The notes under the pieces: generated by a model
Database searches by the model: none
What the model was told of the DNA's origin: nothing
Seen by the model: only the letters and a program-made list of their open reading frames with translations
Program-made: the position numbers and the translations under genes
Source: an uncultured Bacilli bacterium
GTDB lineage: Bacteria > Bacillota_I > Bacilli_A > RF39 > UBA660
DNA: 64,000 nt
Assembly (NCBI GenBank): GCA_934095865.1
Contig: CAKOKU010000006.1
Coordinates: 175-64,174, forward strand
Reading direction: 5' to 3'
Shown: piece after piece, positions 20,042 through 37,392 of the stretch
How positions within the stretch are numbered: position 1 is the stretch's first letter
Layout: each line of letters opens with the position of its first letter

Positions 20042-20899
20042 ATGAAAAGTAAAACTAAAATTGACTTTAAGAATAAGAAAACTATTATAATAACTGCCAT
20101 AATAGCTATCATAGTAGTTGGTCTTATTATATTTTTATGTACAAAACTATTTTCTAAAAAACCAGAACTAACACCAGACAATCCAACTACCAGTGAATTT
20201 GAAAATTACCTAAAAGATAGTATCAAAGGGTTTGATGCAGATTCTATAAATGATTTTATTGAAAGTACAGATAACCTTGCTACTATTAATGAGGTATATT
20301 GGGGAGCAATGTATTCAGGAGATGTTCACAAAAACATAAAAATTCTATATGCTTTAAGTAGACTTTTCTATAATGATTCTACATTAATAGATTATATGAC
20401 TGGTGCCAGTATGTTTGATCTTGATACCGACTTAGGCGATGTAAAGTTATCTATTAAATTTATTAATAAAGTATTAGATGCTAAATTCAAAGATACAACA
20501 ATAGATAAAAATACCGTGATAACTGATGGCTTCTTCTATGGTATTAACGCAATAATTTGTGATGATACATATTGTATTATTCCAATTTCTAGAACAACAG
20601 ATAGCGGTAATGAATCCGATGGTTTATATGCTAGTAGAAAAGGTGATTTAACTAAAGTATCTGGTGGCTATGAAATGACTGTCGAAGATTATTATTATGA
20701 GTTATCATTTGAAGGTATTATGAAAATGGGAATTTATAGCAACGCAGCTAAGGATGTTACTTTTTGCGAAACGAGCTTAACAGAAATGTATTTAGGCGAT
20801 TTCAAAAATACTGATATCTGCAAAGGCGAAGCTACATATGATAAAGTCAAATATAAATTTGATAAAAACTATAAATTTGTAAGTGCAGAAACAGTATAA
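20042..20899 (+). CDS. Single-pass membrane protein, first gene of the Tad-like cluster, function unknown
   Basis: Likely start ATG 20042 (MKSKTKIDFKNKK) after AAAGAGGT. It has a TM helix IIITAIIAIIVVGLIIFLC and then an extracytoplasmic domain of about 240 aa with several Cys. Confidence 0.55.
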   Translation: MKSKTKIDFKNKKTIIITAIIAIIVVGLIIFLCTKLFSKKPELTPDNPTTSEFENYLKDSIKGFDADSINDFIESTDNLATINEVYWGAMYSGDVHKNIKILYALSRLFYNDSTLIDYMTGASMFDLDTDLGDVKLSIKFINKVLDAKFKDTTIDKNTVITDGFFYGINAIICDDTYCIIPISRTTDSGNESDGLYASRKGDLTKVSGGYEMTVEDYYYELSFEGIMKMGIYSNAAKDVTFCETSLTEMYLGDFKNTDICKGEATYDKVKYKFDKNYKFVSAETV

Positions 20900-20912
20900 G
20901 GAAGTGGTTTAT

Positions 20913-21632
20913 ATGAAAAAAAATTATCTTTTATTTGCAATATTTGCGGGCCTGTTATCTAGTACGGTAGTTCATGCGGAAACGTGCCCATTAGAAAAAC
21001 AAGTTGAAGTAAATAATGCTGCCGGTGCCGTAAGTGCTAGTGCTTCTCCCTTAGATTATGAATACGTATATGAAAACGAAGAAACTGGCGAAGAGGCCAT
21101 TGAAACCGCTTATATTGGTGATATTGGCGTATACAACTTAACTGAAGATATTTATGTAGTCGTAAGTGATGGTAAAAACAAAACAACTTTAACTTATAAT
21201 GATTCAAATGATGGTGAAGCTCATGTATCAACTGGAGATATGTATTCAGTAAAAAATTATAAAGTTTCTGTTTATCCAGTAAATGAAAGATGTGGCAAAT
21301 CAGCCATTAAAGAATTAAATGTTACAGTTCCAAGACAAAATAGATTTTATACTAAACAGGGCTGTCAGGAAAACCCAGATTACTTCTATTGTTCACAATT
21401 TATAACGTTAGATGATATATCAAATGAAGAATTTACATTAGGATTAAATGCATATATATCTCAAAATACTAAAAAAGATGAAGATAATAGAAAGCAGGGA
21501 ATAATAGCTGAGACTGCTAATTTTATAAAAAAACATTGGCTTGTAATAACAGTCATCATTTTAATAATAGGTGGCGGTGTAGGAAGTTATATATATATTA
21601 AAAATAAAAAGAGAAAGGAGAGTATAGTTTAA
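20913..21632 (+). CDS. Cys-containing type I membrane protein (signal peptide plus C-terminal TM anchor), function unknown
   Basis: Likely start ATG 20913. Signal peptide ends ...STVVHA|ETCP. C-terminal TM HWLVITVIILIIGGGVGSYIYI is followed by KNKKRK. Confidence 0.55.
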   Translation: MKKNYLLFAIFAGLLSSTVVHAETCPLEKQVEVNNAAGAVSASASPLDYEYVYENEETGEEAIETAYIGDIGVYNLTEDIYVVVSDGKNKTTLTYNDSNDGEAHVSTGDMYSVKNYKVSVYPVNERCGKSAIKELNVTVPRQNRFYTKQGCQENPDYFYCSQFITLDDISNEEFTLGLNAYISQNTKKDEDNRKQGIIAETANFIKKHWLVITVIILIIGGGVGSYIYIKNKKRKESIV

Positions 21633-21633
21633 T

Positions 21634-24600
21634 ATGAAGAATAAAAGTTATAAATATTTTCTTTTACTTTTTACAATCGTTTACATTTTGATTCCTAATC
21701 AAGTAAAGGCTGTAACTGAACGAAGTTGTACAGTATCAGTTGATGTAAGTAATTATGCCACTGACGAGAAAAATAGCAAATATTTTTACGGAAATATTTT
21801 AAAAAATTGTCCAGGTAGTAAAGATAGCAGTTCATATAGCAATCCAAAAGCTACGGTAACAAGTAATACTAGTGGTGTAAACATGAATTTTAGCTATGCT
21901 AGAACCAATGGCGTTTTTAAATTTAATAATTTAACATCTTTAAAAAACAATACTTCTATGACTGTTAAGCTAACATACAAAGACGCAAATGGTACTGACC
22001 AAGTTACAAATTTACGCTTTATGTTTGTTGTGAAAGCTAACACTACAACAACGAATGTGTGTTGTTATAATAAAGCAAGAGGTACATATTATACGTCTAC
22101 ATCTTGTTATGGAAAAGACCTAGAACCTCAAGCAGACCGAAGCAAATGTAATGCACAACAAGATGGCTCCTCTTCCGAAGAACAAGTATCAGCATGCTAC
22201 CGTGTATCAAAGGATAATAAAACATGGCTATATAAATACGATAAAGAAAATAATTTGTTAAAAAATTATGTTTATGTAAACAAAATGGAAAAAGATAAGG
22301 ACGGTAATCCATATACTCAAAAAACTTGCGCATCAGAAAATAATACTTTAAAAGATACAACGGATCAAAATAGTTCATCTAGCTCAAATACTTCAGGGGC
22401 AGGAACTTCATCTAGCACAGGAGGCAATACATCAATAAGTGATACTTCATCAGCTAGTACTGGTGAAAACGTTTGCAAAAATTACAGAATAGAAAGAGTT
22501 CGTTCATATAACTGTACAGGAGATAAGGCATGTAAGAAATTAAAAGCCGCAAATTTAAATTACAAAAATGAAGGATATTTTTACAGTGCAGTTAGCAATA
22601 TGGACAACTATTACTATGTTTATAAAACATATTACGATTGTGAAGGTATTGACAAGACAGAAGCCATGACTTCATTTTGTATAGATCCAGGTCTAGAGGG
22701 ACCAAGAATCAGCGCTGAAAATGGTAACAAATATGAGGGAACGTCAATTGGTGTTACCACAGATTTTGGTAAAGGTTTATACAGATTGTATACATACTGG
22801 TATCTTGAAAAAGGTAATGAAATTAGAAGTATGTATCAAGGTGCTAGTCCAACGGGTAGCGAGGATTTCTTAGATTACGTAATGGATAATGTTGCTAGAA
22901 AATTAAGATTGGTATATGACAGAGAAACTTCTGATTACATTGCTAGTTTGCAAAAAGAATGGAAAGCATACGCAGACCATGATTTAGGTACAGGAACTAG
23001 TTTAGCTAGTAATAAATTAAAAGAAATTTGGCAAGACGTTAGTAATTTTGTTAAAAATGGTAGCGTTACCACAACATCTGATGTTGATAAATGGATAATG
23101 CCAGTAAAAAAATACGAGAAATTAGTTGGCGACTTTAAAGACGGCACAACTGGTTATTATTGCAATGTTCAAGCAGGAGACGGCACTTACAGTGAGTCAG
23201 CATGGAATGAGAACAAAAATAATAATAAAAATACTCATAGCGGCATTGATTTTACAATTAATTCAGAAGATATTGGTAAAGTACCAGTTTATGCTGCTCA
23301 AAGTGGCGTTATTAAATTTAGATGGGATAATAATAAAACTGCTGGCAATGCTATTGGTATTGTTGTAACGCTTTCTGATGGTACTGAATTATTAACTAGG
23401 TATTTGCATTTGGCATCATTCGCTTCTGGCATAAAAACCGGTGCAACAGTCCAAAAAGGGCAAATAATTGGTTATGTAGGAAATACTGGTAAATCTAGTG
23501 GTCCACACTTACATTTTGACATTTCTATTAATAATAGTAACAACGGTTCAAAAGCTCCTCATATTAGTCCAAGAAAATATTTGCCAATGGACAATATCGG
23601 TATTTGTTCTCAAGAACAATTTGAACAAAGTGAACCAACTGTATCAGAATCCACCGAAAATTCAACATTAACAAGCGTAAAATTTGATATTGATGAAACG
23701 GTAAGCAGTCAGAAAAAGAATGGCAATAAAGGCTTTGAGACAGAATTTAAGGTAACAATTAGTTCTGAAAATATTAATGTAATAAATGAAATTATAAATT
23801 CTAAAAAATATAAAATTTTAGTAAAAACAAGTGAAGGTGAAGAAATAAATAGTGAAAATTTACAAGTAACAACAGTAAATGACTGGAGCATTGATCCAGT
23901 TAACGTTGTTGCAACAGCAACGTATAAGGTTAGTTGTGATAATATTTACAATTATGTGTCTGGCGATTCCTTGGAATATATTAGAGTTGGTATGCAAATA
24001 AGTTATACAGAGCCAAAATCCGCAGACAATGTTGTTATATTAAGTTCAACAGAAACAAATAATGATAGGAAAACAACTAAAGGAAGTCCAAAAAATTTAC
24101 AGGATTTTGTAGTTTTTCTAAATGGTACTTTAAATAAATATGCTGGTATAACCATAACGTTTGATAAAGATAAAGAAAACGTATGTAAGCCAACGTTTGC
24201 ACTTCCATGTACTGGACCAGAGACGGTAGTTTACTTAATAGAAGGAACTCAATCAGGTGCTTTATTTAATACGGTTATGAATGGTATTAAATCGGTTGAT
24301 GATCTAAGAAATGTTATTTCCAGTGCTAATGAAATGGTTCAAAATCTTATCAATGGTAATTTTACTAATCTTCTAGATAAAGATAATTTACAAGTAATTA
24401 GTGGGTTACTATATAACTTTGTCGACAAAGCTTCTATTGTAAGAAATATAAAAAATGAGCTTAGCTTCTTAAATACTTTAGGAAATAATGGCAATAAAAC
24501 AGCAGCAGCCTTATATAAGGAAATAAATGCCTCATCATTTAGTACTAACTCCGCTGAAAATTTTAAAACCTTATCAAGAATAATCTCTAGAACATTAGTC

Positions 24601-27600
24601 AATGTTGCTCTAAATGGTTATGATAAAGTATCTAGTGAGTGGCAAGAAATAGTAGAGGCGGCTCAAGCCAATGCAGAAAGTAAATTAACGTCTAATTCGC
24701 TAGTGGAACTTTTAGAGAATATTGGAAATGCGATCACCAGTTCAAAAGAAAATTTGAAAAATGTCTTTAGTGCCGTTGAAAATCTAACTGATTATTTAAG
24801 CAAATTTACAAACATTACGGACATAGAAAGTGCAGTTACTTCATTCAGTGCAACAATTAAAAGCGTTATTACTGATGGCCTAAGCAAGTTATCAGGAATA
24901 AAAGATGGATTAACAAGTATGTTGAATCAATTGGGCAGTGGTGTAACTAGCTTATCACAAGTTAGCAATATATTTGATTCTATAACTAATGCCCTAATCG
25001 TAGATTGGGATAAATGTATAATAGGAGAAAATGGTGTGGAAGCTACTGACCCAGGTGGAAATTCATATACAATTCAGGAAAGTAATGATGATGGAAGTAA
25101 TATATTCTGTACAATAGTTTGTAAAGAAGATTATGCTGTAAAGTCTCCAGGTAGTTTAGGCACAGTATATGCGGGTAGATATATTTCTACTAATCTAGAT
25201 AATGTTTATCATGCAACTTTAGGTATGGCTGGTCAAAGAACTTGTGCTACGACTGAAATAAAAAATGATAAATATGTGGAAACCGCTACGGCAAAAAAAG
25301 ATGAAATGTTAGCAACTTATAATGAATTCTATGAATCATATGCCAAATATAAAGCCTTAAAAACATATGAGAAAACAGCTAATCAAAAAGAAAGTGGAAC
25401 ATCACATCCTGCTTATACAACTTTTGATAAATTAAATACAGATAAAATATTTGATAAATTACAGTTGGAACTAGAGAGCGTCATAAAAAATTCATTTAAT
25501 ACATTTTTTGTAAGTATTTTTGGTAATGAAGCCGCTGAAGAAGTGATGACAAATTTTGCCCAAGATGCCCTAGAAATGGCAGCTAAAATGGGTGCTTTAG
25601 CTCTTAGTGGCGATTTAAATGCTGATAATGTAAAATCTTTAGCAACAAGCTATGTAAAACAAAAGGTAGATCAAACGATTCAAAATTTAGAAGGCGCTGT
25701 CCAAAATTTACTATCAAGTTTGACAAATAATTGTATCAGTGCTGCTGAAGACGTGTTGAAAACAGCTGGTGTAAACCTATTATCTGGTGGTGGACAATTA
25801 ATTATAGAAGCAGCGTGTAATTATGGACCCGGTTTATTAGATACTTTATTTGGTATAGGTGAAGTATTACGAGCAGCCTGTGCGGCATATTCAGGTTTCT
25901 CTATGGCATTAAGTACAGGAATTACAAGTGTTAATGCTTCAACTGGTTATAAGATCTTCCAAATTGAAGATGGAATACCATATACTTATAGTTATTATCC
26001 ATATGTCTATGAAAATAGTGAAACACTTCAAAAGAAGCTAGCAGCAAATTTTGTTGAAGCAGAAAATGTTGCGAAAAATTTAATTACAAAAAATGCTTCA
26101 TCAAGTGGAAATAGAGCGCAACTTTGGGTTATGAAATACGAAGGTACATTTAAAATGGGATCGCTAAATTATGGTAGTATCATTTTTAGGACTGCTAAAC
26201 AAATATATTATTTAACTCAAGATATTCAAAGATTCGGTAACTTAGACATATTAGATTCAGGTGCCTTAGAAAATCAGCTTAACAGTTTTATAAATAGCAT
26301 TCAAGGATTAAGTGGTGGTTTTAAATTAAGCTGGTTGAAGAAAAATTACGATTCTTTATCAACTGATGGCTTTGACGGACTATCTGGCATGATAAGTAAC
26401 GTAATGAGTATATTTTCTGATATTAGCGGTGCAACAGACAATGTTTTAACTGGTATAACAGACTTAGTAGATTCAGCACTTTTAGTTTATTACGATTTTT
26501 TAGGTATATTTAACCCATTCTATTCTTCATTAGCTGAAATAAGAAGAGAGATGGAAGGATATAAAGAAGAATACAATGCTCTTCAAGAAGATTTGACTGA
26601 TTTAGCTGATCGTATGAATGCTTGTACAGAATGGACAAATACTTATCAATTTAATCCACAAATTGAGTTTACATATGGATATTCAAATAATAATTTGTTA
26701 GACTATATTACTAACAAAAAGAGCATAACAACAGATAAAATTACCCTTAAAGCAATCAATAAAAATGAAGAACCAGAACAAATTACATATTACTGCCAAC
26801 AAGGCGTTGATATTAAAGATGTTCAAAACTGGGATGTAATAACATCCGGTAAATGTACTACTGATGATGGAATTTTTGGTTCAGTATTATCTTCATTACT
26901 TGGTGATGATAATGCAATGAGTTCTATATTAAATGTCTTCAGAGAAAATTCAGCTGGTTTAAAGAAAATCCTTAACAGTTCAAAAGTAAAAGAATATATT
27001 TCAAGTACTGGTTATGCTGATAAGATAAGTAATTTCTTATGTAGTGGTTTAGGCGAAGCTTTCTGTGGCATCTTTGGCGATGAAAATGAAGATGGCAGTT
27101 TAGTAACTTTAGTACCAGGTTCTATTGTTTATAAATTAAAAACATCGACTAATTCATCATCAAGCAATGGTATTCAAAGTTGGACTGGACTATTAAGCGC
27201 TATTGGTGGCGGTGGTTCATTAGATTCAATTCTATCCGGAATCACTAGAAACTTGACTTACAGCACAGGTATTCCAAATGATGTAAAATATCATGATGTT
27301 GGTCGCGTCGTTAGTATTTCTAGATACGGTAATCCAGGTGTCTCAGTATCCGGTTTAAGTTGGACTAGTATTCTATCTAACATAGCTTCTTATGTTACTG
27401 ATAAAACTGGTATTAATGCTCTTGACAAAATAAATGATACATTAATGTCTGTTACTGGCCAAGGAGCTCAACAATTCATTTATTATAAATCAAGTAAACC
27501 ATATTGGACTTATTCAAATAAAGGTATTTATATAATCAATCCAGATGTAGTTGATCCAGTTGATGCTCCAGTTTTAGTAGATAATGGTGATCCTGCTTTA

Positions 27601-28593
27601 ACAGATGATTCAATTAAATCAGGTACCGATGCTGAAAAGCAACCAGAAGGTTTAGTTTATCCAATTGCTTTATCAACTGCTGAAGGTAAATATCATTATC
27701 AAATTAAAATCAATAATGTTGGTCAATATTATGATAATGTTAATAATTTAGGTCGTATTATAGATGATACTGGTTATGTAAGCGGATTATACGCTAACAA
27801 ATATGTTTGTGATTATGAAGTTAAAAAAGAACCTGAACATGAAGAAACCTGTGAAACAATTATTGCTTCTAGCGATTGTACTTCTCAAGAAGAACCAAAA
27901 ACTCTATACTTTAAACAGTACAAAGCAAATTACAATGATAAAACTTTAGAAAATCAAGTAAATACGTGTGTAACCAAGTTGCTTTCTGAAGGAGACACTT
28001 GTTGTAGTTATGTAGAAAACTATGAAGATAGTTTACCAGACAGTAGTAAAGAATTGTATAGAAAAATGTGTAAGTGTAATGGAACTAAAGTAATTGGCAC
28101 TATTAATGACACGACTGATGGTTCAAGTTCATCTAGTTCATCTGCTTTAATAACTAAGACCGGCACATTACAGTTCTACACAAAAGTTGTATCAAATTAT
28201 GACTTATTCCCTAATGCAAATAGTTCAAAAGGTTATAACTGGAGTGGTCAGACATCTGGTTATGAGAATGCCACTGATACAAACAAAACACCATCAAAAG
28301 AAAACTTATCAGATATAATTGATGAAATAGAAAAAATTGGTGATGGTATTTATGATGAAGATAATGCAGATAAATATTTAGAGTATTCTATAACTTTAAA
28401 TGGTGCATGTATGTCAAAAATCAAAGAATACAATGATCAAAAAGAAGTTTTAGGTTTAGGCTTTGGCGATTATACAGCTGGTTCAATAAGTCAAGAAACA
28501 AGAGATTATACATCAAAATTCTTACAAGAAATAGAAGAAAATAATGAGTACTCATCTTGTAAAATATCAAATTACTTAAATAGAAACAAATAG
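21634..28593 (+). CDS. Giant (2319 aa) secreted Cys-rich protein with M23 (LytM-type) peptidoglycan endopeptidase domain
   Basis: Uninterrupted 6.96-kb ORF starting 1 nt after the upstream stop. Signal peptide ends ...IPNQVKA|VTE. Contains Ser-rich linkers, M23 motifs HSGIDF and GNTGKSSGPHLHFDI, and a long central region of short amphipathic L/I/N/S-rich helices. Both termini are Cys-rich. Confidence 0.85.
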   Translation: MKNKSYKYFLLLFTIVYILIPNQVKAVTERSCTVSVDVSNYATDEKNSKYFYGNILKNCPGSKDSSSYSNPKATVTSNTSGVNMNFSYARTNGVFKFNNLTSLKNNTSMTVKLTYKDANGTDQVTNLRFMFVVKANTTTTNVCCYNKARGTYYTSTSCYGKDLEPQADRSKCNAQQDGSSSEEQVSACYRVSKDNKTWLYKYDKENNLLKNYVYVNKMEKDKDGNPYTQKTCASENNTLKDTTDQNSSSSSNTSGAGTSSSTGGNTSISDTSSASTGENVCKNYRIERVRSYNCTGDKACKKLKAANLNYKNEGYFYSAVSNMDNYYYVYKTYYDCEGIDKTEAMTSFCIDPGLEGPRISAENGNKYEGTSIGVTTDFGKGLYRLYTYWYLEKGNEIRSMYQGASPTGSEDFLDYVMDNVARKLRLVYDRETSDYIASLQKEWKAYADHDLGTGTSLASNKLKEIWQDVSNFVKNGSVTTTSDVDKWIMPVKKYEKLVGDFKDGTTGYYCNVQAGDGTYSESAWNENKNNNKNTHSGIDFTINSEDIGKVPVYAAQSGVIKFRWDNNKTAGNAIGIVVTLSDGTELLTRYLHLASFASGIKTGATVQKGQIIGYVGNTGKSSGPHLHFDISINNSNNGSKAPHISPRKYLPMDNIGICSQEQFEQSEPTVSESTENSTLTSVKFDIDETVSSQKKNGNKGFETEFKVTISSENINVINEIINSKKYKILVKTSEGEEINSENLQVTTVNDWSIDPVNVVATATYKVSCDNIYNYVSGDSLEYIRVGMQISYTEPKSADNVVILSSTETNNDRKTTKGSPKNLQDFVVFLNGTLNKYAGITITFDKDKENVCKPTFALPCTGPETVVYLIEGTQSGALFNTVMNGIKSVDDLRNVISSANEMVQNLINGNFTNLLDKDNLQVISGLLYNFVDKASIVRNIKNELSFLNTLGNNGNKTAAALYKEINASSFSTNSAENFKTLSRIISRTLVNVALNGYDKVSSEWQEIVEAAQANAESKLTSNSLVELLENIGNAITSSKENLKNVFSAVENLTDYLSKFTNITDIESAVTSFSATIKSVITDGLSKLSGIKDGLTSMLNQLGSGVTSLSQVSNIFDSITNALIVDWDKCIIGENGVEATDPGGNSYTIQESNDDGSNIFCTIVCKEDYAVKSPGSLGTVYAGRYISTNLDNVYHATLGMAGQRTCATTEIKNDKYVETATAKKDEMLATYNEFYESYAKYKALKTYEKTANQKESGTSHPAYTTFDKLNTDKIFDKLQLELESVIKNSFNTFFVSIFGNEAAEEVMTNFAQDALEMAAKMGALALSGDLNADNVKSLATSYVKQKVDQTIQNLEGAVQNLLSSLTNNCISAAEDVLKTAGVNLLSGGGQLIIEAACNYGPGLLDTLFGIGEVLRAACAAYSGFSMALSTGITSVNASTGYKIFQIEDGIPYTYSYYPYVYENSETLQKKLAANFVEAENVAKNLITKNASSSGNRAQLWVMKYEGTFKMGSLNYGSIIFRTAKQIYYLTQDIQRFGNLDILDSGALENQLNSFINSIQGLSGGFKLSWLKKNYDSLSTDGFDGLSGMISNVMSIFSDISGATDNVLTGITDLVDSALLVYYDFLGIFNPFYSSLAEIRREMEGYKEEYNALQEDLTDLADRMNACTEWTNTYQFNPQIEFTYGYSNNNLLDYITNKKSITTDKITLKAINKNEEPEQITYYCQQGVDIKDVQNWDVITSGKCTTDDGIFGSVLSSLLGDDNAMSSILNVFRENSAGLKKILNSSKVKEYISSTGYADKISNFLCSGLGEAFCGIFGDENEDGSLVTLVPGSIVYKLKTSTNSSSSNGIQSWTGLLSAIGGGGSLDSILSGITRNLTYSTGIPNDVKYHDVGRVVSISRYGNPGVSVSGLSWTSILSNIASYVTDKTGINALDKINDTLMSVTGQGAQQFIYYKSSKPYWTYSNKGIYIINPDVVDPVDAPVLVDNGDPALTDDSIKSGTDAEKQPEGLVYPIALSTAEGKYHYQIKINNVGQYYDNVNNLGRIIDDTGYVSGLYANKYVCDYEVKKEPEHEETCETIIASSDCTSQEEPKTLYFKQYKANYNDKTLENQVNTCVTKLLSEGDTCCSYVENYEDSLPDSSKELYRKMCKCNGTKVIGTINDTTDGSSSSSSSALITKTGTLQFYTKVVSNYDLFPNANSSKGYNWSGQTSGYENATDTNKTPSKENLSDIIDEIEKIGDGIYDEDNADKYLEYSITLNGACMSKIKEYNDQKEVLGLGFGDYTAGSISQETRDYTSKFLQEIEENNEYSSCKISNYLNRNK
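23236..23514 (+). other. M23 catalytic core within the giant protein
   Basis: HxxxD (H-S-G-I-D, codons from 23236) and HxH (H-L-H, 23506-23514) zinc ligands are both intact, with the conserved GxxGxSxGPHLH context. Confidence 0.8.
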
Positions 28594-28607
28594 GTAGGTG
28601 AAGAATA

Positions 28608-29408
28608 GTGAAAGAATCTTATTGGGGTTACTGGTTAGTAATGCTTGGTATTTTGGTAATAGGCGTTATGCTTCTTATCAACAGTACTACTAACGGTACA
28701 ACCCATGATTATTATGAATTAAAAGAAACAACATCGGCTGCCGTTATAGATGCAGTAGACTACTCTTACTACCGTCTATATGGTGATTTGAAAATATCAA
28801 AAGAAAAATTTATAGAGAACTTCATCCGTAGATTTTCTGAGTCAGCAACTATGACTAAAGAATATAACGTATCATTTTATGATATTCATGAAGTTCCTCC
28901 TAAAGTAAGTGTTAAAATATCTACTGTTAGTAACGCTGTAAACGTTGCTAACAGTAGTAACTCTTTCGATTTAGTTAATAAAATAGATATTATATTAGTT
29001 GGAGGCTCAAAAGATAATAATAAAACACCAGGTAAAACTGAGCCAACAACTCCAGAAACATGCTATATCTTAAATACGACACAAACATTTATGAAGATTA
29101 TTAAGGAAATCTTAGTTGATGGTACTAGTACTTATGGTGTAGATACCGCATTAGTTCAAAGAATAAGACATGCTGGCTTTACTAATTTAAATTCATGGTC
29201 AAAAACTGATTGTAATATATCAAGTGATGATTGTGTAAGTAAATTTAATTCAGCATTAAACTTAGATTTCAGTGGTGCTTTACAACTTGCTGATACTAGA
29301 GAGCTTTTAATAACCAACGACCCAACTTATGTCAAGGATTCAAATGATGAAACTAGTGGCATCTTAGGTTATGCGTTAAATAAAGGCTATATAACCCTAA
29401 CTAAATAA
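28608..29408 (+). CDS. Single-pass membrane protein of the Tad-like cluster, function unknown
   Basis: GTG start after AGGTGA. The N-terminal hydrophobic helix WGYWLVMLGILVIGVMLLI is followed by a domain of about 230 aa. No prepilin cleavage motif. Confidence 0.55.
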   Translation: MKESYWGYWLVMLGILVIGVMLLINSTTNGTTHDYYELKETTSAAVIDAVDYSYYRLYGDLKISKEKFIENFIRRFSESATMTKEYNVSFYDIHEVPPKVSVKISTVSNAVNVANSSNSFDLVNKIDIILVGGSKDNNKTPGKTEPTTPETCYILNTTQTFMKIIKEILVDGTSTYGVDTALVQRIRHAGFTNLNSWSKTDCNISSDDCVSKFNSALNLDFSGALQLADTRELLITNDPTYVKDSNDETSGILGYALNKGYITLTK

Positions 29409-29427
29409 GAGTAGAAAGAGGATAAAA

Positions 29428-30249
29428 ATGGATAAAATTAAAGAAGAACTAAAAAAAGTTCTCGCTAATAAAAATACACTTACTATTATTATTGTAATTA
29501 TTGGTATTATTGGTTTATATGCAATTTATAACTGGCGTGTAAATCAAGCCGTAACAACAATAAGGGTACCATACGCAAAAAAAGAATTAACTAGTCGTAC
29601 TCAAATAACTAGTGATGCCATTGGTACCACAGAGCTACCAAAAAGAATAGCTCGCAATTTAGGAATTTTAACATCTACAAGTAACATAACTAATAATTAT
29701 GTAAAATATGGTGAAACAATTCCTGCTAATAGCTTCTTTTATAAAGATTATATTGTTTCCTTTGAAGAAGCTACTACTAATGAATTTAGTGATATCCCAG
29801 ATGGTTATACAGCATACAACCTAGCAGTTGATATAAACTCAACATACGGTAACTCAATATACACTGGCAATTACGTAGACCTTTATGTAAAAGCAACCAG
29901 TGCTAGTAGTAAAGTAATCTTTGGTCGCTTAATAAAAAGTATCAAAGTATTAGCCGTATTAGACTCATCAGGCAATGATGTCTTTGAATCATCAACTGAA
30001 GCTAGAACCCCAACTCAAATGTGGTTCGCTGTACCAGATGAACTATATACATTATTAAAGAAAACCGAATATATTGGTGGCATCAGCGTTATGCCAATTC
30101 CAAGAAATGCAAGTTATACAGCAACACCTAGTGATACAACTATTGACTCACAATATATTCAAAACTTTATCTTATCTAAATCAATAACAGTTAGTCAAAA
30201 TTTCAATAGTAATACCAATACGGGTACTGAAACAGAAAATCAAGAATAG
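29428..30249 (+). CDS. cpaB: CpaB/RcpC-like pilus assembly protein, paralogue 1
   Basis: TM helix, then a SAF-like segment IRVPYAKKELTSRTQITSDAI. DGYTAYNLAVDINSTYGNSIYTGNYVDLYV matches the recalled CpaB core (g.rAvsv.vd...G.i.PGD.VDv). Confidence 0.6.
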   Translation: MDKIKEELKKVLANKNTLTIIIVIIGIIGLYAIYNWRVNQAVTTIRVPYAKKELTSRTQITSDAIGTTELPKRIARNLGILTSTSNITNNYVKYGETIPANSFFYKDYIVSFEEATTNEFSDIPDGYTAYNLAVDINSTYGNSIYTGNYVDLYVKATSASSKVIFGRLIKSIKVLAVLDSSGNDVFESSTEARTPTQMWFAVPDELYTLLKKTEYIGGISVMPIPRNASYTATPSDTTIDSQYIQNFILSKSITVSQNFNSNTNTGTETENQE

Positions 30250-30266
30250 AAAGTGAGTTATAAAAG

Positions 30267-31040
30267 ATGAAAAACGCTCTTGCACCTTTAAAAAGGTTCA
30301 TTCAAAATAAAAATACTGTTACTATCCTTTGTATAGTAGCTGGTATCTTAACTTTAGTAATAGGGTATAACTACCGAGTTAATAAATCAATTGACTTGGT
30401 TTCTATTCCCTATGCTCTAAAGGAAATTCCAAGAAAAACCCAAATAACAAAAGATATGATAGGACACGTTAAAGTACCACGTTCCTTAATTAAAAATGCT
30501 AAAAATATCATAACGACAGACAAAGAATTAATAAATTATTATTCTAGTTATTCTACTGATATCCCAGCTAAAAGTTTATTTTATACTGACACAATCCTAA
30601 AAGAAGAACAAATGCCAGATTATGCTTTTACAAATATGCAAGATGGTTATACCGTATATTCTCTTAAAGTAAATAACAAATCAACGTATTCAAATCGTTT
30701 CCGTCCAGGTGATTATATTGACCTTTATATTGAAGCAAAAGATCAAAATCGTGTCATGATGGCAATCTTAGTTAAATCTATTAAAATTAAAGCCATTAAA
30801 GATTCAGCCGGAAATTCTATTCTAGAAAATACACTATCTGGTGGTACTCCAGCTGCACTTCTATTTGAAGTAGAAGATAAACTATTTGATTTACTTAAAA
30901 AAAGTGAATATGTTACTAATGTTGAAATAATTCCTGTACCAAGAAACTCTAACTATACTAAAGAAGAGGGTGCAACTACGGTCTCAACAGAAGAAATAAC
31001 TAACTATATTTATAATAAAACTGAAGTTATAACTAATTAG
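30267..31040 (+). CDS. cpaB: CpaB/RcpC-like pilus assembly protein, paralogue 2
   Basis: Same architecture and collinear with paralogue 1: VSIPYALKEIPRKTQITKDMI, DGYTVYSLKVNNKSTYSNRFRPGDYIDLYI, LLKKSEYV...PVPRNSNYT. Confidence 0.6.
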   Translation: MKNALAPLKRFIQNKNTVTILCIVAGILTLVIGYNYRVNKSIDLVSIPYALKEIPRKTQITKDMIGHVKVPRSLIKNAKNIITTDKELINYYSSYSTDIPAKSLFYTDTILKEEQMPDYAFTNMQDGYTVYSLKVNNKSTYSNRFRPGDYIDLYIEAKDQNRVMMAILVKSIKIKAIKDSAGNSILENTLSGGTPAALLFEVEDKLFDLLKKSEYVTNVEIIPVPRNSNYTKEEGATTVSTEEITNYIYNKTEVITN

Positions 31041-31051
31041 AAAGGATTAAT

Positions 31052-32455
31052 ATGAACGAGGCAATATTTGAGCAAATGGACTTTGGTCCGCTATCTGAAT
31101 TTCTAGCTGATGATGATATTACCGATATATCTTATTCTAATAATGGTCAAGTTTGGTTAAAAACCTTATCTAAAGGTGTTTATCAAGTAGAAAGACCTGA
31201 TATAAATAATACATTTATGGAAAAGTTAGCATTCCAATGTTCAAACGTCATGGGTAAAACATTTAATATGGCTCATCCCTTATTAGATGCTGAATCAGCC
31301 GAATTACGTATGAACTTCATTCATGAATCAATTGCTACTAATGGTATTGCCTGCTTAATCCGTAAAACCCCGGCTAAAATTCGTCTTAATAAACAAAAAT
31401 TATTAAATGAAGAATATATAACAGAAACCCTACACGATTTTTTAATGAATTGTGTAGCAGGTCACTGCAATATTATTGTTGCCGGTGAAACTGGTTCTGG
31501 TAAAACCGAGCTATTAAAATATTTAGCAAGTCATATCAAAGAAAATGAAAAAATTATTACTATTGAAGATACTTTAGAACTTCACTTAGATAGAATTTTC
31601 CCTCATCGTGATATTGTTGCTATGAAAACTAATAATATTTGTAGTTATACTGATGTTCTAGTAGCCTGTATGCGTCAAAACCCAATTTGGATTTTACTTT
31701 CCGAAGTTCGTTCTGGTGAGGCCGTTATGTCTGTACGTAATGCCATATCATCAGGCCACAATATCTTATCAACAATCCACGCTGATAAAGCAAGATCAAT
31801 CCCATTGCGTATGTATTCCTTAATGGAATCAAGTCAAGATGTTCAACAATTTCTAACAACAATTCATAGATATGTTCAAATAGGTATTTATGTTAAAGGT
31901 TATTTTAGTAAAAAATTTAATCGTTTTCAAAGAGAAATTATTGAAGTTTGTGAATTTTACGTTGATGAAAACAATCAACCATGTACTAATGAAATATATA
32001 AAAAATCATTAGATGGCCAATATGTATTAAAAAATCCAACTCAGCAGTTACTAGATTATTTAAGTATTCAAAATGTTATGTTAGAAAAAGATACCTTCCA
32101 TTTGGGAGATAAAGAAGAATATGATGGTAATGTTGAAGATGATTTAAAGAAAAGTCAGAGTAATGGCGAAGTAAGTAGTAATGTAAATACGGCACCGGTT
32201 GAAAGTGTTAATACACCTAGTCAAAGCAATCAACCATCAGAAACATTAAATATTCCAAATCAAAATCTTACTGCTTCTACTAACCAAAGTAATATTCCTA
32301 ATAATTTAAACAATCCTAACAATAATCAAAGTCCAAATAATACGCCAATCAATAATAATCCGTTACCAAATGGCGTACCAGTAAATAGTTTCTTTAGTAA
32401 TAATACTACACTAAATAACAATATAACTACTTCTAATAGTGAAGAAGTATTATAG
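31052..32455 (+). CDS. tadA: CpaF/TadA-type secretion ATPase with N/P/S-rich C-terminal tail
   Basis: Walker A GETGSGKTE (31484-31510), Asp box ITIEDTLEL, Walker B RQNPIWILLSEVR, His box LSTIHA. The size and the following TadB/TadC-like genes fit the Tad subfamily. Confidence 0.8.
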   Translation: MNEAIFEQMDFGPLSEFLADDDITDISYSNNGQVWLKTLSKGVYQVERPDINNTFMEKLAFQCSNVMGKTFNMAHPLLDAESAELRMNFIHESIATNGIACLIRKTPAKIRLNKQKLLNEEYITETLHDFLMNCVAGHCNIIVAGETGSGKTELLKYLASHIKENEKIITIEDTLELHLDRIFPHRDIVAMKTNNICSYTDVLVACMRQNPIWILLSEVRSGEAVMSVRNAISSGHNILSTIHADKARSIPLRMYSLMESSQDVQQFLTTIHRYVQIGIYVKGYFSKKFNRFQREIIEVCEFYVDENNQPCTNEIYKKSLDGQYVLKNPTQQLLDYLSIQNVMLEKDTFHLGDKEEYDGNVEDDLKKSQSNGEVSSNVNTAPVESVNTPSQSNQPSETLNIPNQNLTASTNQSNIPNNLNNPNNNQSPNNTPINNNPLPNGVPVNSFFSNNTTLNNNITTSNSEEVL

Positions 32456-32464
32456 GAGGATAAA

Positions 32465-33367
32465 ATGGAGTTAATAATTTTAATTGCACTTGCACTATTT
32501 GCCTTTTCCTACCGTAATAGTGCTAATGCCTCAATCGATGGAGCTTTCAAATTCATTCAAAATGGTGTAACCAACCTTTATGATAGATATGCTCCATATA
32601 GTTTTAAACAAGTAAGAGAAAAAACCAAAGAATTAGGTGAGGAATATACTGTAAGACAATATTTAAGTCAAGTTGCCTTGTTTGGCATCGTTGCTGGTGG
32701 CATCGCATATCTTTACTTTTATAATTTATTTATAACTATAATTTATGCAGCCATCGCCATTGCTTTTATTCCATATCTATCATATCTAAGAACTCAACGA
32801 ATTTATTCTGAATATATATTCGAGCAAATTCAAACTTATACTACTAACGTTATCATGGAATTTAATACGACTCAGAGTTTTGTTAAATCTCTAGAAGGTG
32901 TAGTTGAATCTGGTATCTTAGAAAAACCCGTTGTTGATGATGTTAAAACGATGATTAATATGGCTTATGCTAATGGTACTATTGACCAATCAATTGCTTA
33001 CTTTAATGAAAAATATCCATATTATATGGTCAAGAATATGCACCAATTATTTTATCAAATTACTAAGGAAGGTTCTAAAGACTCTGGTGAATCCCTAGAA
33101 AATATGTCATTAGACATCGATGCTTTAGTAGAAGGTGTTTATCGTGATAGAATGGATAGAGCTAACTTCCACAAAAAGTTCTTAACTTTCGGTATGGCCT
33201 TATTCTTATTAGCAGCCGTTATGCAATTCTTATTAGGTCGTGATTCATATATTAAACTACTAGAAATGTGGTATGTTAAACTAATCTTACATTTAATAAT
33301 CATAATAAACTGCTATTTCTTATTAACTGGTGAGAAATATTATAATGAAGATGTGGGGGTAGAGTAA
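32465..33367 (+). CDS. tadB: TadB-like platform protein (single T2SSF domain)
   Basis: N-terminal TM helices, a central cytoplasmic helical domain and C-terminal TM helices. It is about 300 aa and lies immediately after the ATPase gene. Confidence 0.6.
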   Translation: MELIILIALALFAFSYRNSANASIDGAFKFIQNGVTNLYDRYAPYSFKQVREKTKELGEEYTVRQYLSQVALFGIVAGGIAYLYFYNLFITIIYAAIAIAFIPYLSYLRTQRIYSEYIFEQIQTYTTNVIMEFNTTQSFVKSLEGVVESGILEKPVVDDVKTMINMAYANGTIDQSIAYFNEKYPYYMVKNMHQLFYQITKEGSKDSGESLENMSLDIDALVEGVYRDRMDRANFHKKFLTFGMALFLLAAVMQFLLGRDSYIKLLEMWYVKLILHLIIIINCYFLLTGEKYYNEDVGVE

Positions 33368-33368
33368 T

Positions 33369-34157
33369 ATGTATTTTGAAATTCTTGGCTTATCAGCCCT
33401 ATACTTATTTGTCTTAAATAAAACTAAAGTTATTGATGTCAAAAAATGTATAAATGATAACGTTGGCTATTTCCTACGTTTTAAAGAATCTGATTATGAT
33501 TTTCTAGTGCGTACTCGTTATGGTGAAGGCGTTGACCCCGATTATTTATTCGGTAAAAGAATTACTCAGGGACTAGTAGTAGGGCTATTAGTAATCTGCT
33601 TCTTCATTAATAAATTCAGTTATATTTATGTTATTTTGGCTATTGTTGCTGGTATTTTCATGTTTAAATCAAGTTATAACAGCTTGAAAAATTATTATAA
33701 AAACAATTTGCACACCATTGATGCCATGTTGCCACATTACTTAAAAGGCTTAGAAATCTTAATTCAACACTATACCGTACCAGTTGCCATTGCTAAAAGT
33801 GTCGACACGGCCCCAGAAATCTTTAAAAAAGGCTTATTAGAAATGATTGCCAAGATAAATTCTGGTGATAGTTCAATTGAACCTTATATGGACTTTGCTC
33901 GTACTTATCCAGTTCGTGATTCTATGCGTATGATGCGTTTACTATACCGTCTAGGTTTAGGGCGTCAAGATAGAAAACAAGAACAATTATTAAATTTCTC
34001 TCGTTCAATTTCAAGCTTACAACAAAAAGCGCGTGATACTAAATATAAAGAACGTCTAGATAAAATGGAAAATAAGACTATGAGTATGCTTATTTCTACT
34101 GGCTTAGGTGTTATGATATTACTAATTTTAGCAGTAATGCAAATGATGAATGGTTAG
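33369..34157 (+). CDS. tadC: TadC-like platform protein (single T2SSF domain)
   Basis: Starts 1 nt after the tadB-like stop. Topology is TM, helical domain (YMDFARTYPVRDSMRMMRLLYRLGLG), then a C-terminal TM. Confidence 0.6.
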   Translation: MYFEILGLSALYLFVLNKTKVIDVKKCINDNVGYFLRFKESDYDFLVRTRYGEGVDPDYLFGKRITQGLVVGLLVICFFINKFSYIYVILAIVAGIFMFKSSYNSLKNYYKNNLHTIDAMLPHYLKGLEILIQHYTVPVAIAKSVDTAPEIFKKGLLEMIAKINSGDSSIEPYMDFARTYPVRDSMRMMRLLYRLGLGRQDRKQEQLLNFSRSISSLQQKARDTKYKERLDKMENKTMSMLISTGLGVMILLILAVMQMMNG

Positions 34158-34264
34158 ACAATTAATTATTTTACAAATCCATTTCTTGAATAGGGGAATG
34201 GTTTTTTTATTTTTCAAATTTATCAATGATAATACAACAATATTACCAAAACTTAAAATTAATA

Positions 34265-34273
34265 TGCTATACT
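34265..34273 (+). promoter_or_regulatory. Extended -10 element (TGcTATACT) upstream of the pilin gene
   Basis: Lies in the only sizeable gap of the cluster (162 nt), after a weak hairpin and T-run at about 34181-34215. Confidence 0.4.
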
Positions 34274-34319: not shown

Positions 34320-36059
34320 ATGAAAAGAAAAAAGGGATTTACAATACCAGAACTTCTAGCTGTAATTGTTATAATAGGAGTTCTAACTGTCATGTCAGTA
34401 GGTACCTACACATCGATTAGTAAAAGTGTAAAAGAAGCTGAATTAAAAGAAAAGATAGAATATTTAAAGTCAAAAGTAATGGAATATGCTAGTGACAATA
34501 ATATAGAAAGAGATACTATTACAGTTAGTACTTTAATTGATTTAGGTTACATCGAAATGGATCACCCTGAAAACGCCAAACAAGAAAAGATTGATAATCC
34601 TGTAACTGGTGGTTATTTAGATTGTACTAACTTTACTATTGTTAGAGATTTAGATGATTATAATATAACATATGACTTAGAAGGCAGCTGCTTAACTGCT
34701 GATGTAGAATCAAAATCAGGTGAAATAAAAACAAGTCTTTATGTTTTAACTAATAATGGCTTAAAATCTTTAGATGAATTTAAATTATCAGACAAAGATA
34801 TCATTATAGATAATAATAAGGAAAATAATGACAATAAAAATAATAACAGTGGCAGTAGTATAATTGGCGGCTTATTTGGTGGCCTACTAGAAGGGATTTT
34901 AGGCAATAATGCAAATTCAATTCTAGGTGGTATCTTTGGCGGTTTAAAAAATATTTTTAGTTGGTTATTTCCTAATGCTTTTGCAACTCCCGTAAATTCT
35001 ATATATGATATTCATCCTTGGGCGGGTAGTGATGTATACTTATTTGTTGATTTTAGTGATGTCAGTTTTAATATTAAAGATAATAGTGTAACTTATGACA
35101 TCGGTGGTTTAAGTACAAGTACGAAAGAAGGAAACATTTGTTCAAAATCTAATGTTAATGTAGATTGTGCCAATGTTATAAGAGTTGAATCCGTACTGTT
35201 GTTTAACAGCTTAGTTAGTGCTACCGTCAATACTGATTACGGTTATGTTACGAAAAAAGCTTTGGTTAGAATTGATAAAGAAAATCCTACCATAAAAATA
35301 GATTATGATCAAAGTTATACTAGTAATAGTGTTCCTGTTTATTTGACTGGTGAAGATGGAGCGGGAAGTGGAATCGCTGGTTATTACTTTGGTAAAAAAG
35401 CTAGTCCAACTATTGATGATTTTACTACAACAAGTACCTATCATGTTAACGAAAATGGTAAATATTATGCGGCGACAATTGATAACGTAGGGAATATGTC
35501 AGAAATAAAAACAATCAATATTAGTTCGATTGATAAAGATGCGCCAATTGGTTTTATAAATCCTAGTGGCCGTGATGATTGGTCAACCTCAGATTTTACT
35601 TTCAACTTTGGTTGCAGTAGTGATACAAAAGCCGGCTGTGCAAATAAGATTGTTTATTCAATTTACAATAATGATACTAGTTCTTATATTGTTCAAAATG
35701 TAACTGTTGATGAAGCCTCTACTTCTTACACTGTAACGACACCAAATAATACTAGTCTTTCATCTATTACCTTAACTTATACAATATATGATAATGTTGG
35801 AAACTCAAGTACCAAGGTAGAAACTATTCATACCAGAATTGATAAAGTAGACCATTCATCTAATAATAATTCTGGTGGCGGTAATCCAGGTCCAAATGAT
35901 GAAAATCATGCCTGTAAAGGCTGGGAAGGCTTGGCTTGTGTCTTAGCTGGAGCCGCTGCTGGTGGTTTAGGTGGTGCTCAATTAGGTGGCGGCATCGGTG
36001 CTGCGATTGGGGCTGCGGCCGGAGCTCTTGGCGGCTTACTATGTGTAATTTTCTGTTAA
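34320..36059 (+). CDS. Large modular type IV prepilin (class III signal peptide) with Ig-like modules and glycine-zipper segments
   Basis: N-terminus MKRKKG|FTIPELLAVIVIIGVLTVMSV has a short basic leader, Gly-1, Phe+1, Glu+5 and a hydrophobic helix. Boundaries IDKENPT, IDKDAPI and IDKVDHS suggest Ig-like modules. GxxxG-rich segments sit at about 34851-34975 and 35921-36056. Confidence 0.8.
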   Translation: MKRKKGFTIPELLAVIVIIGVLTVMSVGTYTSISKSVKEAELKEKIEYLKSKVMEYASDNNIERDTITVSTLIDLGYIEMDHPENAKQEKIDNPVTGGYLDCTNFTIVRDLDDYNITYDLEGSCLTADVESKSGEIKTSLYVLTNNGLKSLDEFKLSDKDIIIDNNKENNDNKNNNSGSSIIGGLFGGLLEGILGNNANSILGGIFGGLKNIFSWLFPNAFATPVNSIYDIHPWAGSDVYLFVDFSDVSFNIKDNSVTYDIGGLSTSTKEGNICSKSNVNVDCANVIRVESVLLFNSLVSATVNTDYGYVTKKALVRIDKENPTIKIDYDQSYTSNSVPVYLTGEDGAGSGIAGYYFGKKASPTIDDFTTTSTYHVNENGKYYAATIDNVGNMSEIKTINISSIDKDAPIGFINPSGRDDWSTSDFTFNFGCSSDTKAGCANKIVYSIYNNDTSSYIVQNVTVDEASTSYTVTTPNNTSLSSITLTYTIYDNVGNSSTKVETIHTRIDKVDHSSNNNSGGGNPGPNDENHACKGWEGLACVLAGAAAGGLGGAQLGGGIGAAIGAAAGALGGLLCVIFC

Positions 36060-36075
36060 AAAGGATGGATTAAAA

Positions 36076-37392
36076 ATGAATAATGAAGAAATAAAGAAAA
36101 AACTAAGTAAAAAGCAAATGTTATTTATCATAATTGCCGCTATAATTGTAATTGTCGGTATTATCTTTCTAATTATTAAGATTACGGATAAGACTGTGTA
36201 TTATAAAAATGTCATAAATACTTCTTTTAATAAAATAACTACTAGTATTAATGAATTAGATAAAATAACGGGAAATAACACTTCTTTTTCTGATTCTATT
36301 ATCGTAAATGGTGATATACAAGATAATACTAGTAAAGTAGGGATAGAATTAAAGACTAATCTTAAAGATAAAATTCTTCGAGGAAAAATTAATTACAATA
36401 CATATGATTTAAACTATATCTATCAAGACAATAAATCATATATAAGTTCTGATAGTATATTTAATAATACCTACCAGATTGATGGTAAACTAGGCAGTAT
36501 AGATTTAGATGGTATCTTAAGCAACATAACCATTGAAAGCAGCGCTGATACTGCTGAATTAATAAATACTATAAATAGTCTAAAAGCTATAATCACATCT
36601 TCTTTAGAAAACAAATATATCTCCAAGAAAACAACTAAGACAATAATAGATAAAACCGAAGAAAGTGTTACTAGATATTCTTATACTTTAAACAAAGAAT
36701 CATTAAAAAAGTTCTTAGATAAATTAAATAAAAATAATAATTTGAAGAAAAGAATTATTAACTTAGTCAACACCATTGCTAAAGATGAAGTATTAACAGA
36801 AAGTAATTTTAGAAGTGAGCTTGAAAATAAAATAATCAATGGTACTTTTAATATCTATACCCAGGGTAGCAAAGTTAGAAAAGTAAGTATTTATTTAGTT
36901 GATTTTCTTAATGTTGATTTTACCTCTAATAACGGTTATGATAGGGTAGAATTTACTAATGAAAAGAAATCTAACAATATAATTATTAATTACAATACTA
37001 ATACTAAAGAATATACCATATCTTTATTTCAAAAATCTAGCAAGCGTTTTGATATTATTTTTATGATGGATAATGATATAAATGCTAGTTACAGTGTATA
37101 TACAAATAATGATAAAATAACGGGAACTATTACCGTAACTGATGTTATGAATATTAAAAATCGTAAAATAAAAGCTACAATTAATTATAATAATAAAACT
37201 TTTACAATTAGCTGTACTATAAATAAGAATGATTCAGTATCTAAAATGGATGTTAGTAATGCTATAACCAATGGTACTCCTAGCGAAGAAGAACAGTTGA
37301 AATTTAAAAATGCAATTAGTGAATTTACTAATAGTTCATTATTTAAGGATTTATCTTCTTTAGTTTTAAATTTAATAGGCAATAATAATTAA
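36076..37392 (+). CDS. Single-pass membrane protein, N/I/K/T-rich ectodomain, function unknown
   Basis: RBS AAAGGA, TM helix MLFIIIAAIIVIVGIIFLII, no recognised motif. Confidence 0.5.
   Translation: MNNEEIKKKLSKKQMLFIIIAAIIVIVGIIFLIIKITDKTVYYKNVINTSFNKITTSINELDKITGNNTSFSDSIIVNGDIQDNTSKVGIELKTNLKDKILRGKINYNTYDLNYIYQDNKSYISSDSIFNNTYQIDGKLGSIDLDGILSNITIESSADTAELINTINSLKAIITSSLENKYISKKTTKTIIDKTEESVTRYSYTLNKESLKKFLDKLNKNNNLKKRIINLVNTIAKDEVLTESNFRSELENKIINGTFNIYTQGSKVRKVSIYLVDFLNVDFTSNNGYDRVEFTNEKKSNNIIINYNTNTKEYTISLFQKSSKRFDIIFMMDNDINASYSVYTNNDKITGTITVTDVMNIKNRKIKATINYNNKTFTISCTINKNDSVSKMDVSNAITNGTPSEEEQLKFKNAISEFTNSSLFKDLSSLVLNLIGNNN

Follow-up and report, generated by a model that had tools for sequence, protein, structure and literature searches.

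This study concerns a Tad-like gene cluster in a 64,000-nucleotide stretch of DNA, hereafter the window, from an uncultured Bacilli bacterium of the RF39 lineage (assembly GCA_934095865.1, contig CAKOKU010000006.1, positions 175 to 64,174 of the forward strand). Judged by the homologies of its products, the cluster represents, in chromosomal and reduced form, a Tad-derived module of monoderms that is found widely in Bacillota and is repeatedly embedded in the operons of Gram-positive type IV secretion systems (T4SSs). Eleven co-directional open reading frames (ORFs) on the plus strand span positions 19985/20042-37392, as reported in an initial annotation made from the sequence alone. The first nine of them (g1-g9, 20042-34157) lie at intergenic distances of -17 to 19 nt, which upholds the tight spacing described in that annotation, though not the range of 1-19 nt given for it. 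The window has a G+C content of ~29%, and the locus shows no compositional break. On its left lies rpsD (minus strand); on its right, where hrcA had been named as the boundary, a 707-amino-acid (aa) orphan gene on the minus strand intervenes before hrcA-grpE-dnaK.

A gap of 162 nt separates g9 from g10. It holds a terminator-like hairpin (CCATTTCTTGAATAGGGGAATGG) with a T-run on the plus strand (34179-34210), which lies 22 nt past the g9 stop codon, and, 3' of this hairpin, the extended -10 element TGcTATACT (34265-34273, plus strand) already pointed out in the initial annotation, which is followed by an AAGAGG ribosome-binding site in front of g10. Because the hairpin and its T-run are succeeded by an extended -10 element and a ribosome-binding site before g10, g1-g9 and g10-g11 appear to be separate transcription units, their limits being drawn from these consensus matches. 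The functional unit is the nine-gene operon g1-g9 rather than the set of 11 genes.

Components of the nine-gene operon

The gene g7 (31052..32455, plus strand) encodes a secretion-superfamily ATPase of the monoderm 'CpaF/VirB11 family' (T2SSE, 1e-28), in which all four of the motifs listed earlier as CpaF/TadA-type (GETGSGKTE, ITIEDTLEL, RQNPIWILLSEVR and LSTIHA) were recovered. None of its best NCBIfam matches, which are VirB11, the TadA-type conjugal ATPase, TrbB and FlaI, reaches the cut-off, and in a comparison with PDB sequences its top match is CpaF with 77 bits, against 67 bits for both FlaI and VirB11. The last ~90 residues (aa ~375-467; window 32170-32455) form a low-complexity tail rich in Asn, Pro, Ser and Thr, which is unusual for a cytoplasmic secretion ATPase and drives the variation in length among its homologues (365-646 aa).

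Directly downstream lie g8 (mem1; 32465..33367) and g9 (mem2; 33369..34157), both on the plus strand, which had been annotated as two T2SSF platform proteins. The T2SSF models of Pfam and NCBIfam match neither of them nor any of 60 homologues, and searches of PDB sequences with the g8 and g9 profiles returned nothing. When the profiles were widened by distant family members and a homologue from Priestia, hhalign related mem1 (91.6%, E 8e-7) and mem2 (94.7%, E 6e-8) to eight canonical TadB/TadC proteins over ~150 columns each, and mem1 to mem2 with 97% (E 1e-10), as expected of paralogues; the first mem1-mem2 comparison, made with narrow profiles, had been negative and turned positive once the distant members joined. 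The Priestia homologue of mem1 is named 'type II secretion system F family' by NCBI and scores 24.2 bits against T2SSF, where the cut-off is 25.2. The annotated platform role is thus retained for g8 and g9 as predicted single-domain TadB/TadC-like paralogues, a kinship visible only by profile-profile comparison. Ten distant full-length homologues of g8, taken from a representative search with 306 matches (mostly fragments), carry no Pfam domain. Two further distant homologues, P0491 (720 aa) and P0496 (754 aa), match mem1 through an internal ~220 residues only and may be fused TadB/TadC-type proteins like the one described for the gut order TANB77.

Upstream of the ATPase gene are two plus-strand paralogues of the same protein cluster, g5 (29428..30249) and g6 (30267..31040), which encode CpaB/RcpC-like proteins. 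In g5 an N-terminal membrane anchor is followed by SAF-like and RcpC-like parts (RcpC 3.6e-6 and pilus_cpaB 1.7e-6). The Pfam RcpC matches of both stay below cut-off, and the family as a whole aligns with canonical CpaB by hhalign at 99.7% (E 2e-26, 232 columns), so that on profile evidence the assignment to CpaB, and with it the earlier count of two CpaB-like proteins, is firm. Related loci hold one or two copies of this gene.

The candidate for a filament subunit is g4 (28608..29408, plus strand), a DUF5411 protein (PF17424, 5e-52) with the short N-terminus MKESYWG. An AlphaFold2 model of DUF5411 (predicted local distance difference test, pLDDT, 72.9) has an N-terminal 44-residue helix (5-48), two short helices and a three-stranded sheet, a predicted layout that resembles that of pilins. 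A start of the form M-K/R-E-A/S-x(1-2)-G directly before a hydrophobic helix is common to DUF5411 and to four neighbouring small proteins of the relatives, which belong to the families c8 and c11, and this shared MKE..G start would fit predicted subunits of a single filament system.

The absences reported in the initial annotation were confirmed for the window. Family searches of the proteins of the whole 64 kb found no A24 peptidase, ParA-like protein or secretin, and thus neither TadV nor TadZ; no small pilin or Flp-sized ORF fits the gaps of the locus and none elsewhere in the window is suitable. VirB8 and VirB1 are likewise absent from it.

The largest gene of the operon, g3 ('BIG'; 21634..28593, plus strand), encodes a 2319-aa secreted modular surface protein with an ordinary Sec-type signal peptide, conserved stretches at ~aa 1120-1250 and over the last ~400 residues (aa 1900-2317), and a Peptidase_M23 domain (aa 534-634; 23233..23535, plus strand) that is the only one recognised in family searches, which found no internalin-like domain. 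The M23 active site is intact, as stated earlier (motifs HSGID, YLHL and HLH; Pfam 1.6e-20, lysostaphin 7e-12). Among ~48 homologues of 960-2319 aa these motifs occur in 4, the five nearest species lack any segment equivalent to aa 473-675, and on contigs of the same species (those with an identical g8) three allele lengths of g3 are found, namely 2319 aa (M23 present), 2112 aa (M23 lacking) and 1770 aa. By this pattern g3 is a modular, fast-evolving surface protein, and M23 is an accessory, sporadic and strain-variable insertion in it; given its presence in 4 of ~48 homologues and its loss in a conspecific allele, it is not the defining part of the machine, contrary to the initial annotation, which had built the cluster around it and a giant pilin.

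Two smaller proteins without family match precede g3. The product of g2 (20883..21632, plus strand) is secreted, its signal peptide looks cleavable and its C-terminus carries a membrane anchor, and that of g1 (20042..20899, plus strand; the ORF may start at a TTG at 19985) has an N-terminal membrane anchor.

Relatives among gut Bacilli and on Gram-positive plasmids

Gene presence was counted across 80 loci fetched from related species. The core of CpaB-like protein, ATPase, mem1 and mem2 is found in 74-80 of these; g1 homologues are confined to the loci of the five closest species. The g2 family occurs in 40 of the 80, always directly upstream of the giant gene, and g2, the giant protein and DUF5411 stand upstream of the core in ~40-49 loci. 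Sequence conservation of the core is high: identities are 57-92% for mem1 (77 loci) and 62-94% for the ATPase between species, and both proteins contain long invariant runs. The ATPase is encoded in at least 582 species-representative genomes, whose titles include Mycoplasma sp. CAG:956, Coprobacillus sp. CAG:605, uncultured Tenericutes and Bacilli, and Ca. Coprovivens, and which we take to be RF39-type gut Bacilli. A metagenome protein set holds more than 7,400 homologues of the ATPase and at least 8,000 of mem1; the few ATPase homologues that carry a name there are called 'CpaF family'.

Outside the gut Bacilli, the closest annotated proteins are encoded on Gram-positive plasmids. Among annotated plasmids, the ATPase scores highest against a 'CpaF/VirB11 family' protein of a Priestia koreensis plasmid (186 bits), followed by 'VirB11-like ATPases' of the pLS20 family (144-153 bits) and the proteins of pXO2 (145), Listeria (142) and pXO1 (125), compared with 90-112 bits for proteobacterial CpaF, at most 101 for VirB11 and at most 86 for TrbB. 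In a neighbour-joining tree (303 columns, 200 bootstraps) the ATPases of the gut Bacilli join those of Priestia, Listeria, pXO2 and the pLS20 type at 93% and fall outside the proteobacterial CpaF (100%) and VirB11 (99%) clades; PilB, ComGA and FlaI, which score far lower in the NCBIfam and PDB comparisons, were left out of it. The neighbouring genes follow suit. The mem1 profile matches the 'T2SS F family' (type II secretion system F) protein of Priestia (5.5e-14) and p38 of pLS20 (5e-3), the mem2 profile matches p39 of Listeria (1e-6) and of the pLS20 type (4e-4), and the DUF5411 profile matches p36 of the pLS20 family and its equivalents in Listeria and Priestia, with p36 itself scoring 6e-5 against DUF5411. 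By these matches g4, g8 and g9 are homologues of pLS20 genes 36, 38 and 39, and pXO2 shows corresponding matches by synteny and profile. The initial annotation had expected an undescribed machine whose ATPase groups with TadA/CpaF and not with VirB11; this holds only by half, because the ATPase belongs to neither canonical clade and the module already exists under other names, as pLS20 genes 36-39 and as operons flagged computationally in Clostridia.

Gene order on the plasmids is comparable. On pBatNRS213, a member of the pLS20 family, the adhesin gene tie is followed by two small ORFs including p36, then by the VirB11-like p37, p38, p39, the DUF4320 protein p40 and small hydrophobic proteins, and the operon continues with VirD4, an extended VirB6, two small proteins, VirB4, VirB8 and VirB1. 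In Priestia the order is Ig-like giant protein, DUF5411, SAF/CpaB, ParA-like protein, ATPase, T2SSF, mem2 and DUF4320, and pXO1 carries CpaB, a ParA-like ATPase, a secretion ATPase and two Flp-like genes. For pLS20, genes 36 and 38-40 are listed as unknown and the presence of a VirB11 is called unusual for Gram-positive systems (PMC8557374), whereas Tie is a wall-located surface adhesin required for conjugation (PMC11730352). Gram-positive conjugation systems are usually described without a pilus or similar structure, relying instead on adhesins (PMC11730352, PMC12102498). A review of T4SS nomenclature mentions neither pLS20 nor Tad, and lactococcal conjugation, considered as a source of comparison for the VirB11-like gene, proved not relevant.

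In ~19 of the 80 loci the reading runs unbroken from mem2 into T4SS-type genes. Two c11 proteins of 73-100 aa (MKEATGELN followed by a hydrophobic helix) come first, then two c8 proteins of 150-200 aa (MKEAIGGTW; weak DUF4320 match), an orphan of ~350 aa and T4SS_pilin-like genes, and then a VirB6-like membrane protein of ~850 aa, a PrgI-like protein and the N-terminal part of VirB4 (NF045975, 3e-14). Related metagenome contigs add the 594-aa ATPase part of VirB4, a SpoIID+M23 hydrolase of 873-888 aa, lipoproteins and VirD4 (T4SS-DNA_transf, 7e-56) before housekeeping genes resume; no relaxase was found in the 10 kb of these contigs that were read. On one of them (L148) the ATPase, mem1 and mem2 lie directly upstream of the T4SS set.

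Some features of these T4SS genes are worth recording in their own right. VirB4 is encoded as two consecutive ORFs (~190 + 594 aa) in all relatives examined (L058 20079-20639, L128 9968-12318 and L148 9959-12315), and the same split is seen on a pLS20-family plasmid (L081 23047-25534; 192 + 631 aa). Three loci (L116, L132 and L138) carry arrays of two to five T4SS_pilin-like (c10) genes of 101-478 aa upstream of the VirB6-like gene, which recall the VirB2-like pilin arrays of Patescibacteria. The SpoIID+M23 hydrolase gene occupies the VirB1 position (L128 12390-15053, L148 12397-15015) and may be the source of the M23 insertion in g3. The protein family c14 was considered as TadZ-like; it has no Pfam match and none to the ParA-like proteins of Priestia or pXO1, and the identity is not claimed.

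Neighbouring genes outside the operon

The second transcription unit (g10-g11, 34320..37392, plus strand) encodes g10, a protein of 579 aa that bears a prepilin signal of class III, and g11, a 438-aa membrane-anchored orphan with no family match in Pfam or NCBIfam. The prepilin signal reported earlier for g10 was recovered as G|FTxxE followed by a hydrophobic helix (N_methyl 1e-5, IV_pilin_GFxxxE 1e-5), and the N-terminus also matches geopilin and MshA. The remainder of g10 (34320-36059) is odd in topology for a pilin, with an internal GGxFGG glycine-rich stretch and a hydrophobic, Gly/Ala-rich C-terminus that ends in cysteines. Neither g10 nor g11 has a homologue in any of the 80 loci, and a canonical prepilin occurs nearby in just one other of them. 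Contigs of the same species keep g10, g11 and the minus-strand orphan, and in two of them SpoIVA is succeeded, ~4 kb from the locus, by genes for a Peptidase_A24 and a PilC-type T2SSF protein. From the latter two genes it appears that the species has another type IV filament system, of which g10 is a plausible substrate. The pair g10-g11 is species-specific and probably not part of the g1-g9 machine; the role of filament subunit that g10 had been given is rejected because of the operon structure and the missing conservation.

The conspecific contigs diverge just past the minus-strand orphan, to the right of window position 39558 (L084 and L087 against L085 and L086), some continuing into hrcA-grpE-dnaK like the window and others into SpoIVA, Peptidase_A24 and the PilC-type T2SSF gene. 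The divergence marks a rearrangement breakpoint, and the species possesses, by family assignment, a prepilin peptidase and a sporulation coat ATPase. Elsewhere in the window, a 550-aa protein with a serpin domain (1.4e-43) is encoded at 59138-60790 on the minus strand. A family of large secreted proteins with the N-terminus K..L.VIGILLA....SSSYA[LY]W is encoded at 37435-39558 (minus strand) and 46644-47948 (plus strand), and its members also occur downstream of mem2 in five related loci (L007, L017, L030, L071 and L074), often adjoining the Tad-like core. We take this N-terminus to resemble signal peptides of the SipW/TasA type; the window showed no signal peptidase gene. Scans of the whole window gave no Rfam match and no tRNA.

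Proposed function and comparison with known systems

We propose that g1-g9 encode a Tad-derived envelope machine of a monoderm cell that serves cell-to-cell contact, that is, adhesion of the mating-pair type, and that is used with or derived from a DNA-transfer T4SS; the probability of this reading is in our estimate about one half. A hexameric CpaF/VirB11-family ATPase (g7) would energise a platform of two TadB/TadC-like paralogues (g8 and g9), the membrane-anchored CpaB/RcpC-like g5 and g6 would form a conduit outside the membrane, and a short filament or pseudopilus would have the DUF5411 protein (g4) as its pilin-like subunit. At the surface, the giant protein g3, together with the small g2, would serve as an exchangeable contact factor, put in place or displayed by the apparatus. 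For the conduit there is a parallel in Tad systems, where RcpC forms a dodecameric conduit (PMC12307814). A contact role seems the most likely one because the module is homologous to pLS20 genes 36-39, which follow tie, and because it is contiguous with T4SS genes in many relatives. Use in DNA transfer, by comparison, is suggested by relatives and plasmids rather than by this genome. The system is experimentally uncharacterised, to which extent the earlier description of it as undescribed stands.

Several observations weigh against the proposed contact machine. Family searches of the window found no VirB4, VirD4, VirB6 or relaxase, so that the link to DNA transfer is made here by homology and relatives only, and pLS20 genes 36-39 are themselves entered as 'Unknown' (PMC8557374). 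In ~27 loci the core stands alone between housekeeping genes, which indicates that it can work independently, and some metagenome contigs have T4SS genes with no Tad-like core upstream, the two modules being often, not always, adjacent. The putative filament subunits also resist comparison: Foldseek of the DUF5411 model against the PDB returned nothing (best E 0.49), hhalign found DUF5411 not detectably related to TadE-like proteins (0.45%) and c11 not detectably Flp-like (9%), and the AlphaFold model of g8, built from a 35-sequence alignment, is unusable (pLDDT 49).

These same lone cores and T4SS modules, together with a window free of T4SS genes, would be expected if the operon made a stand-alone adhesive pilus or fibre of the Tad type for mucus, particles or partner cells, with the T4SS genes of the relatives as mere neighbours, and Tad-like clusters of uncultured gut Clostridia have indeed been read as pilus loci (PMC11680825). 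We regard this as a possible but less likely explanation. It leaves the operon without a recognisable major pilin, and it sits poorly with the finding that the nearest relatives of the ATPase, mem1, mem2 and DUF5411 are encoded within the conjugation operons of plasmids and with the recurrence in ~19 species of a tight, co-directional arrangement with VirB6, VirB3 and VirB4.

A T2SS-like pseudopilus that acts as a 'piston' and drives the giant protein, and other large proteins like it, across the wall for export is unlikely. The ordinary Sec-type signal peptide of g3 speaks against it, as does a core that is equally conserved where the giant gene is not adjacent, even though in 40-49 loci the machine genes come immediately after g2 and the giant gene, DUF5411 has a predicted pseudopilin-like layout, and the DUF5411/CpaF/PilC operons of Clostridia were classed as secretion-related by Miller et al. 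2022 (PMC9523054). Decay of an integrated conjugative element to a non-functional remnant, as the missing T4SS half and the flanking housekeeping genes might suggest, is very improbable in view of nine intact ORFs, the identities and invariant runs of mem1 and the ATPase, a native base composition and the occurrence of the core in at least 582 species. The display or delivery of a wall hydrolase, that is, a Kil-like contact weapon or wall-penetration device as proposed in the initial annotation after the Tad-like killing system that is reportedly known in Myxococcus, is rejected as highly improbable on account of the variability of M23, since this domain, intact as it is in the present strain, is absent in most g3 homologues, in the five closest species and in one allele of the species itself, and since the M23+SpoIID hydrolase of the relatives is a separate protein in the VirB1 position, which points to wall remodelling.

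The proposed contact machine can be extended, speculatively, to the whole class of Gram-positive T4SSs represented by pLS20, pXO2 and the Listeria plasmids, for which the Tad-derived apparatus might be the missing pilus-like, adhesin-presenting organelle, composed of MKExxxG DUF5411 subunits, a conduit of CpaB and a TadB/TadC platform with its VirB11-like ATPase; in the small-genome gut Bacilli it might then be a chromosomally fixed device for cell-to-cell contact and DNA exchange with a fast-diversifying giant contact protein. Short of that, the comparison identifies pLS20 genes 36-39 and the core of at least 582 uncultured gut Bacilli species as a predicted cryptic Tad-type module, with CpaB, TadB/TadC paralogues and an ATPase from a sister clade of CpaF/VirB11. 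It offers a concrete hypothesis of how monoderm donors make contact, testable in the tractable pLS20/Bacillus subtilis model, and it reveals, in an uncultured gut lineage that is abundant, a strongly conserved surface machine whose giant protein evolves fast.

Among known systems, the closest in order are those of the pLS20 family (genes 34-40), pXO2, the Listeria pLGUG1/pLM80-type plasmids and the Priestia koreensis plasmid, all of which have a large surface protein, DUF5411, the ATPase and two membrane proteins of ~250-300 aa; in the pLS20 type the p36-p37-p38-p39 module is homologous to DUF5411, the ATPase, mem1 and mem2 of the window. In contrast to the pLS20 family the locus is chromosomal and lacks DUF4320, the small hydrophobic proteins and the VirD4/VirB6/VirB4/VirB8/VirB1 set, and whereas pLS20 has no CpaB the window has two; in Priestia and pXO1 CpaB is accompanied by a ParA-like gene. 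The giant protein has no match among the plasmid adhesins and is unrelated to Tie, yet it holds Tie's position. With the Tad/Flp systems of Caulobacter, Aggregatibacter and Pseudomonas the locus shares CpaB/RcpC, a related ATPase and, arranged as TadB then TadC, a pair of single-domain T2SSF paralogues; it differs from them in having no Flp, TadV, TadZ/CpaE, secretin or recognisable TadE/F, in an ATPase outside the proteobacterial CpaF clade and in platform proteins invisible to Pfam T2SSF. A lytic effector conserved along with the machine, as expected of a Kil-like killing apparatus, is not seen here, M23 varying even within the species.

Chromosomal, relaxase-less MPF-FATA T4SSs with pilin arrays have been described in Patescibacteria (PMC12102498) and resemble the window's relatives, which carry VirB4, VirB6, VirB3-like proteins, T4SS_pilin-like arrays and VirD4 between housekeeping genes, rather than the window itself; a Tad-like module is not described there. 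The Tad-like cluster of the gut order TANB77 (PMC11680825) resembles the locus by its description, since it belongs to a monoderm lineage and has CpaB, an ATPase of the TadA type, proteins like TadB and TadC, and orphan proteins resembling pilins, and differs in its TadZ/CpaE-like genes and a fused TadC-TadB. The DUF5411/CpaF/PilC operon of Roseburia, Ruminococcus and Eubacterium, predicted to be 'secretion-related' and uncharacterised (Miller et al. 2022, PMC9523054), shares DUF5411 with the locus; as described, it also has an ATPase of the CpaF type, a membrane protein like PilC/GspF and a large protein of the surface or 'invasion-like' kind.

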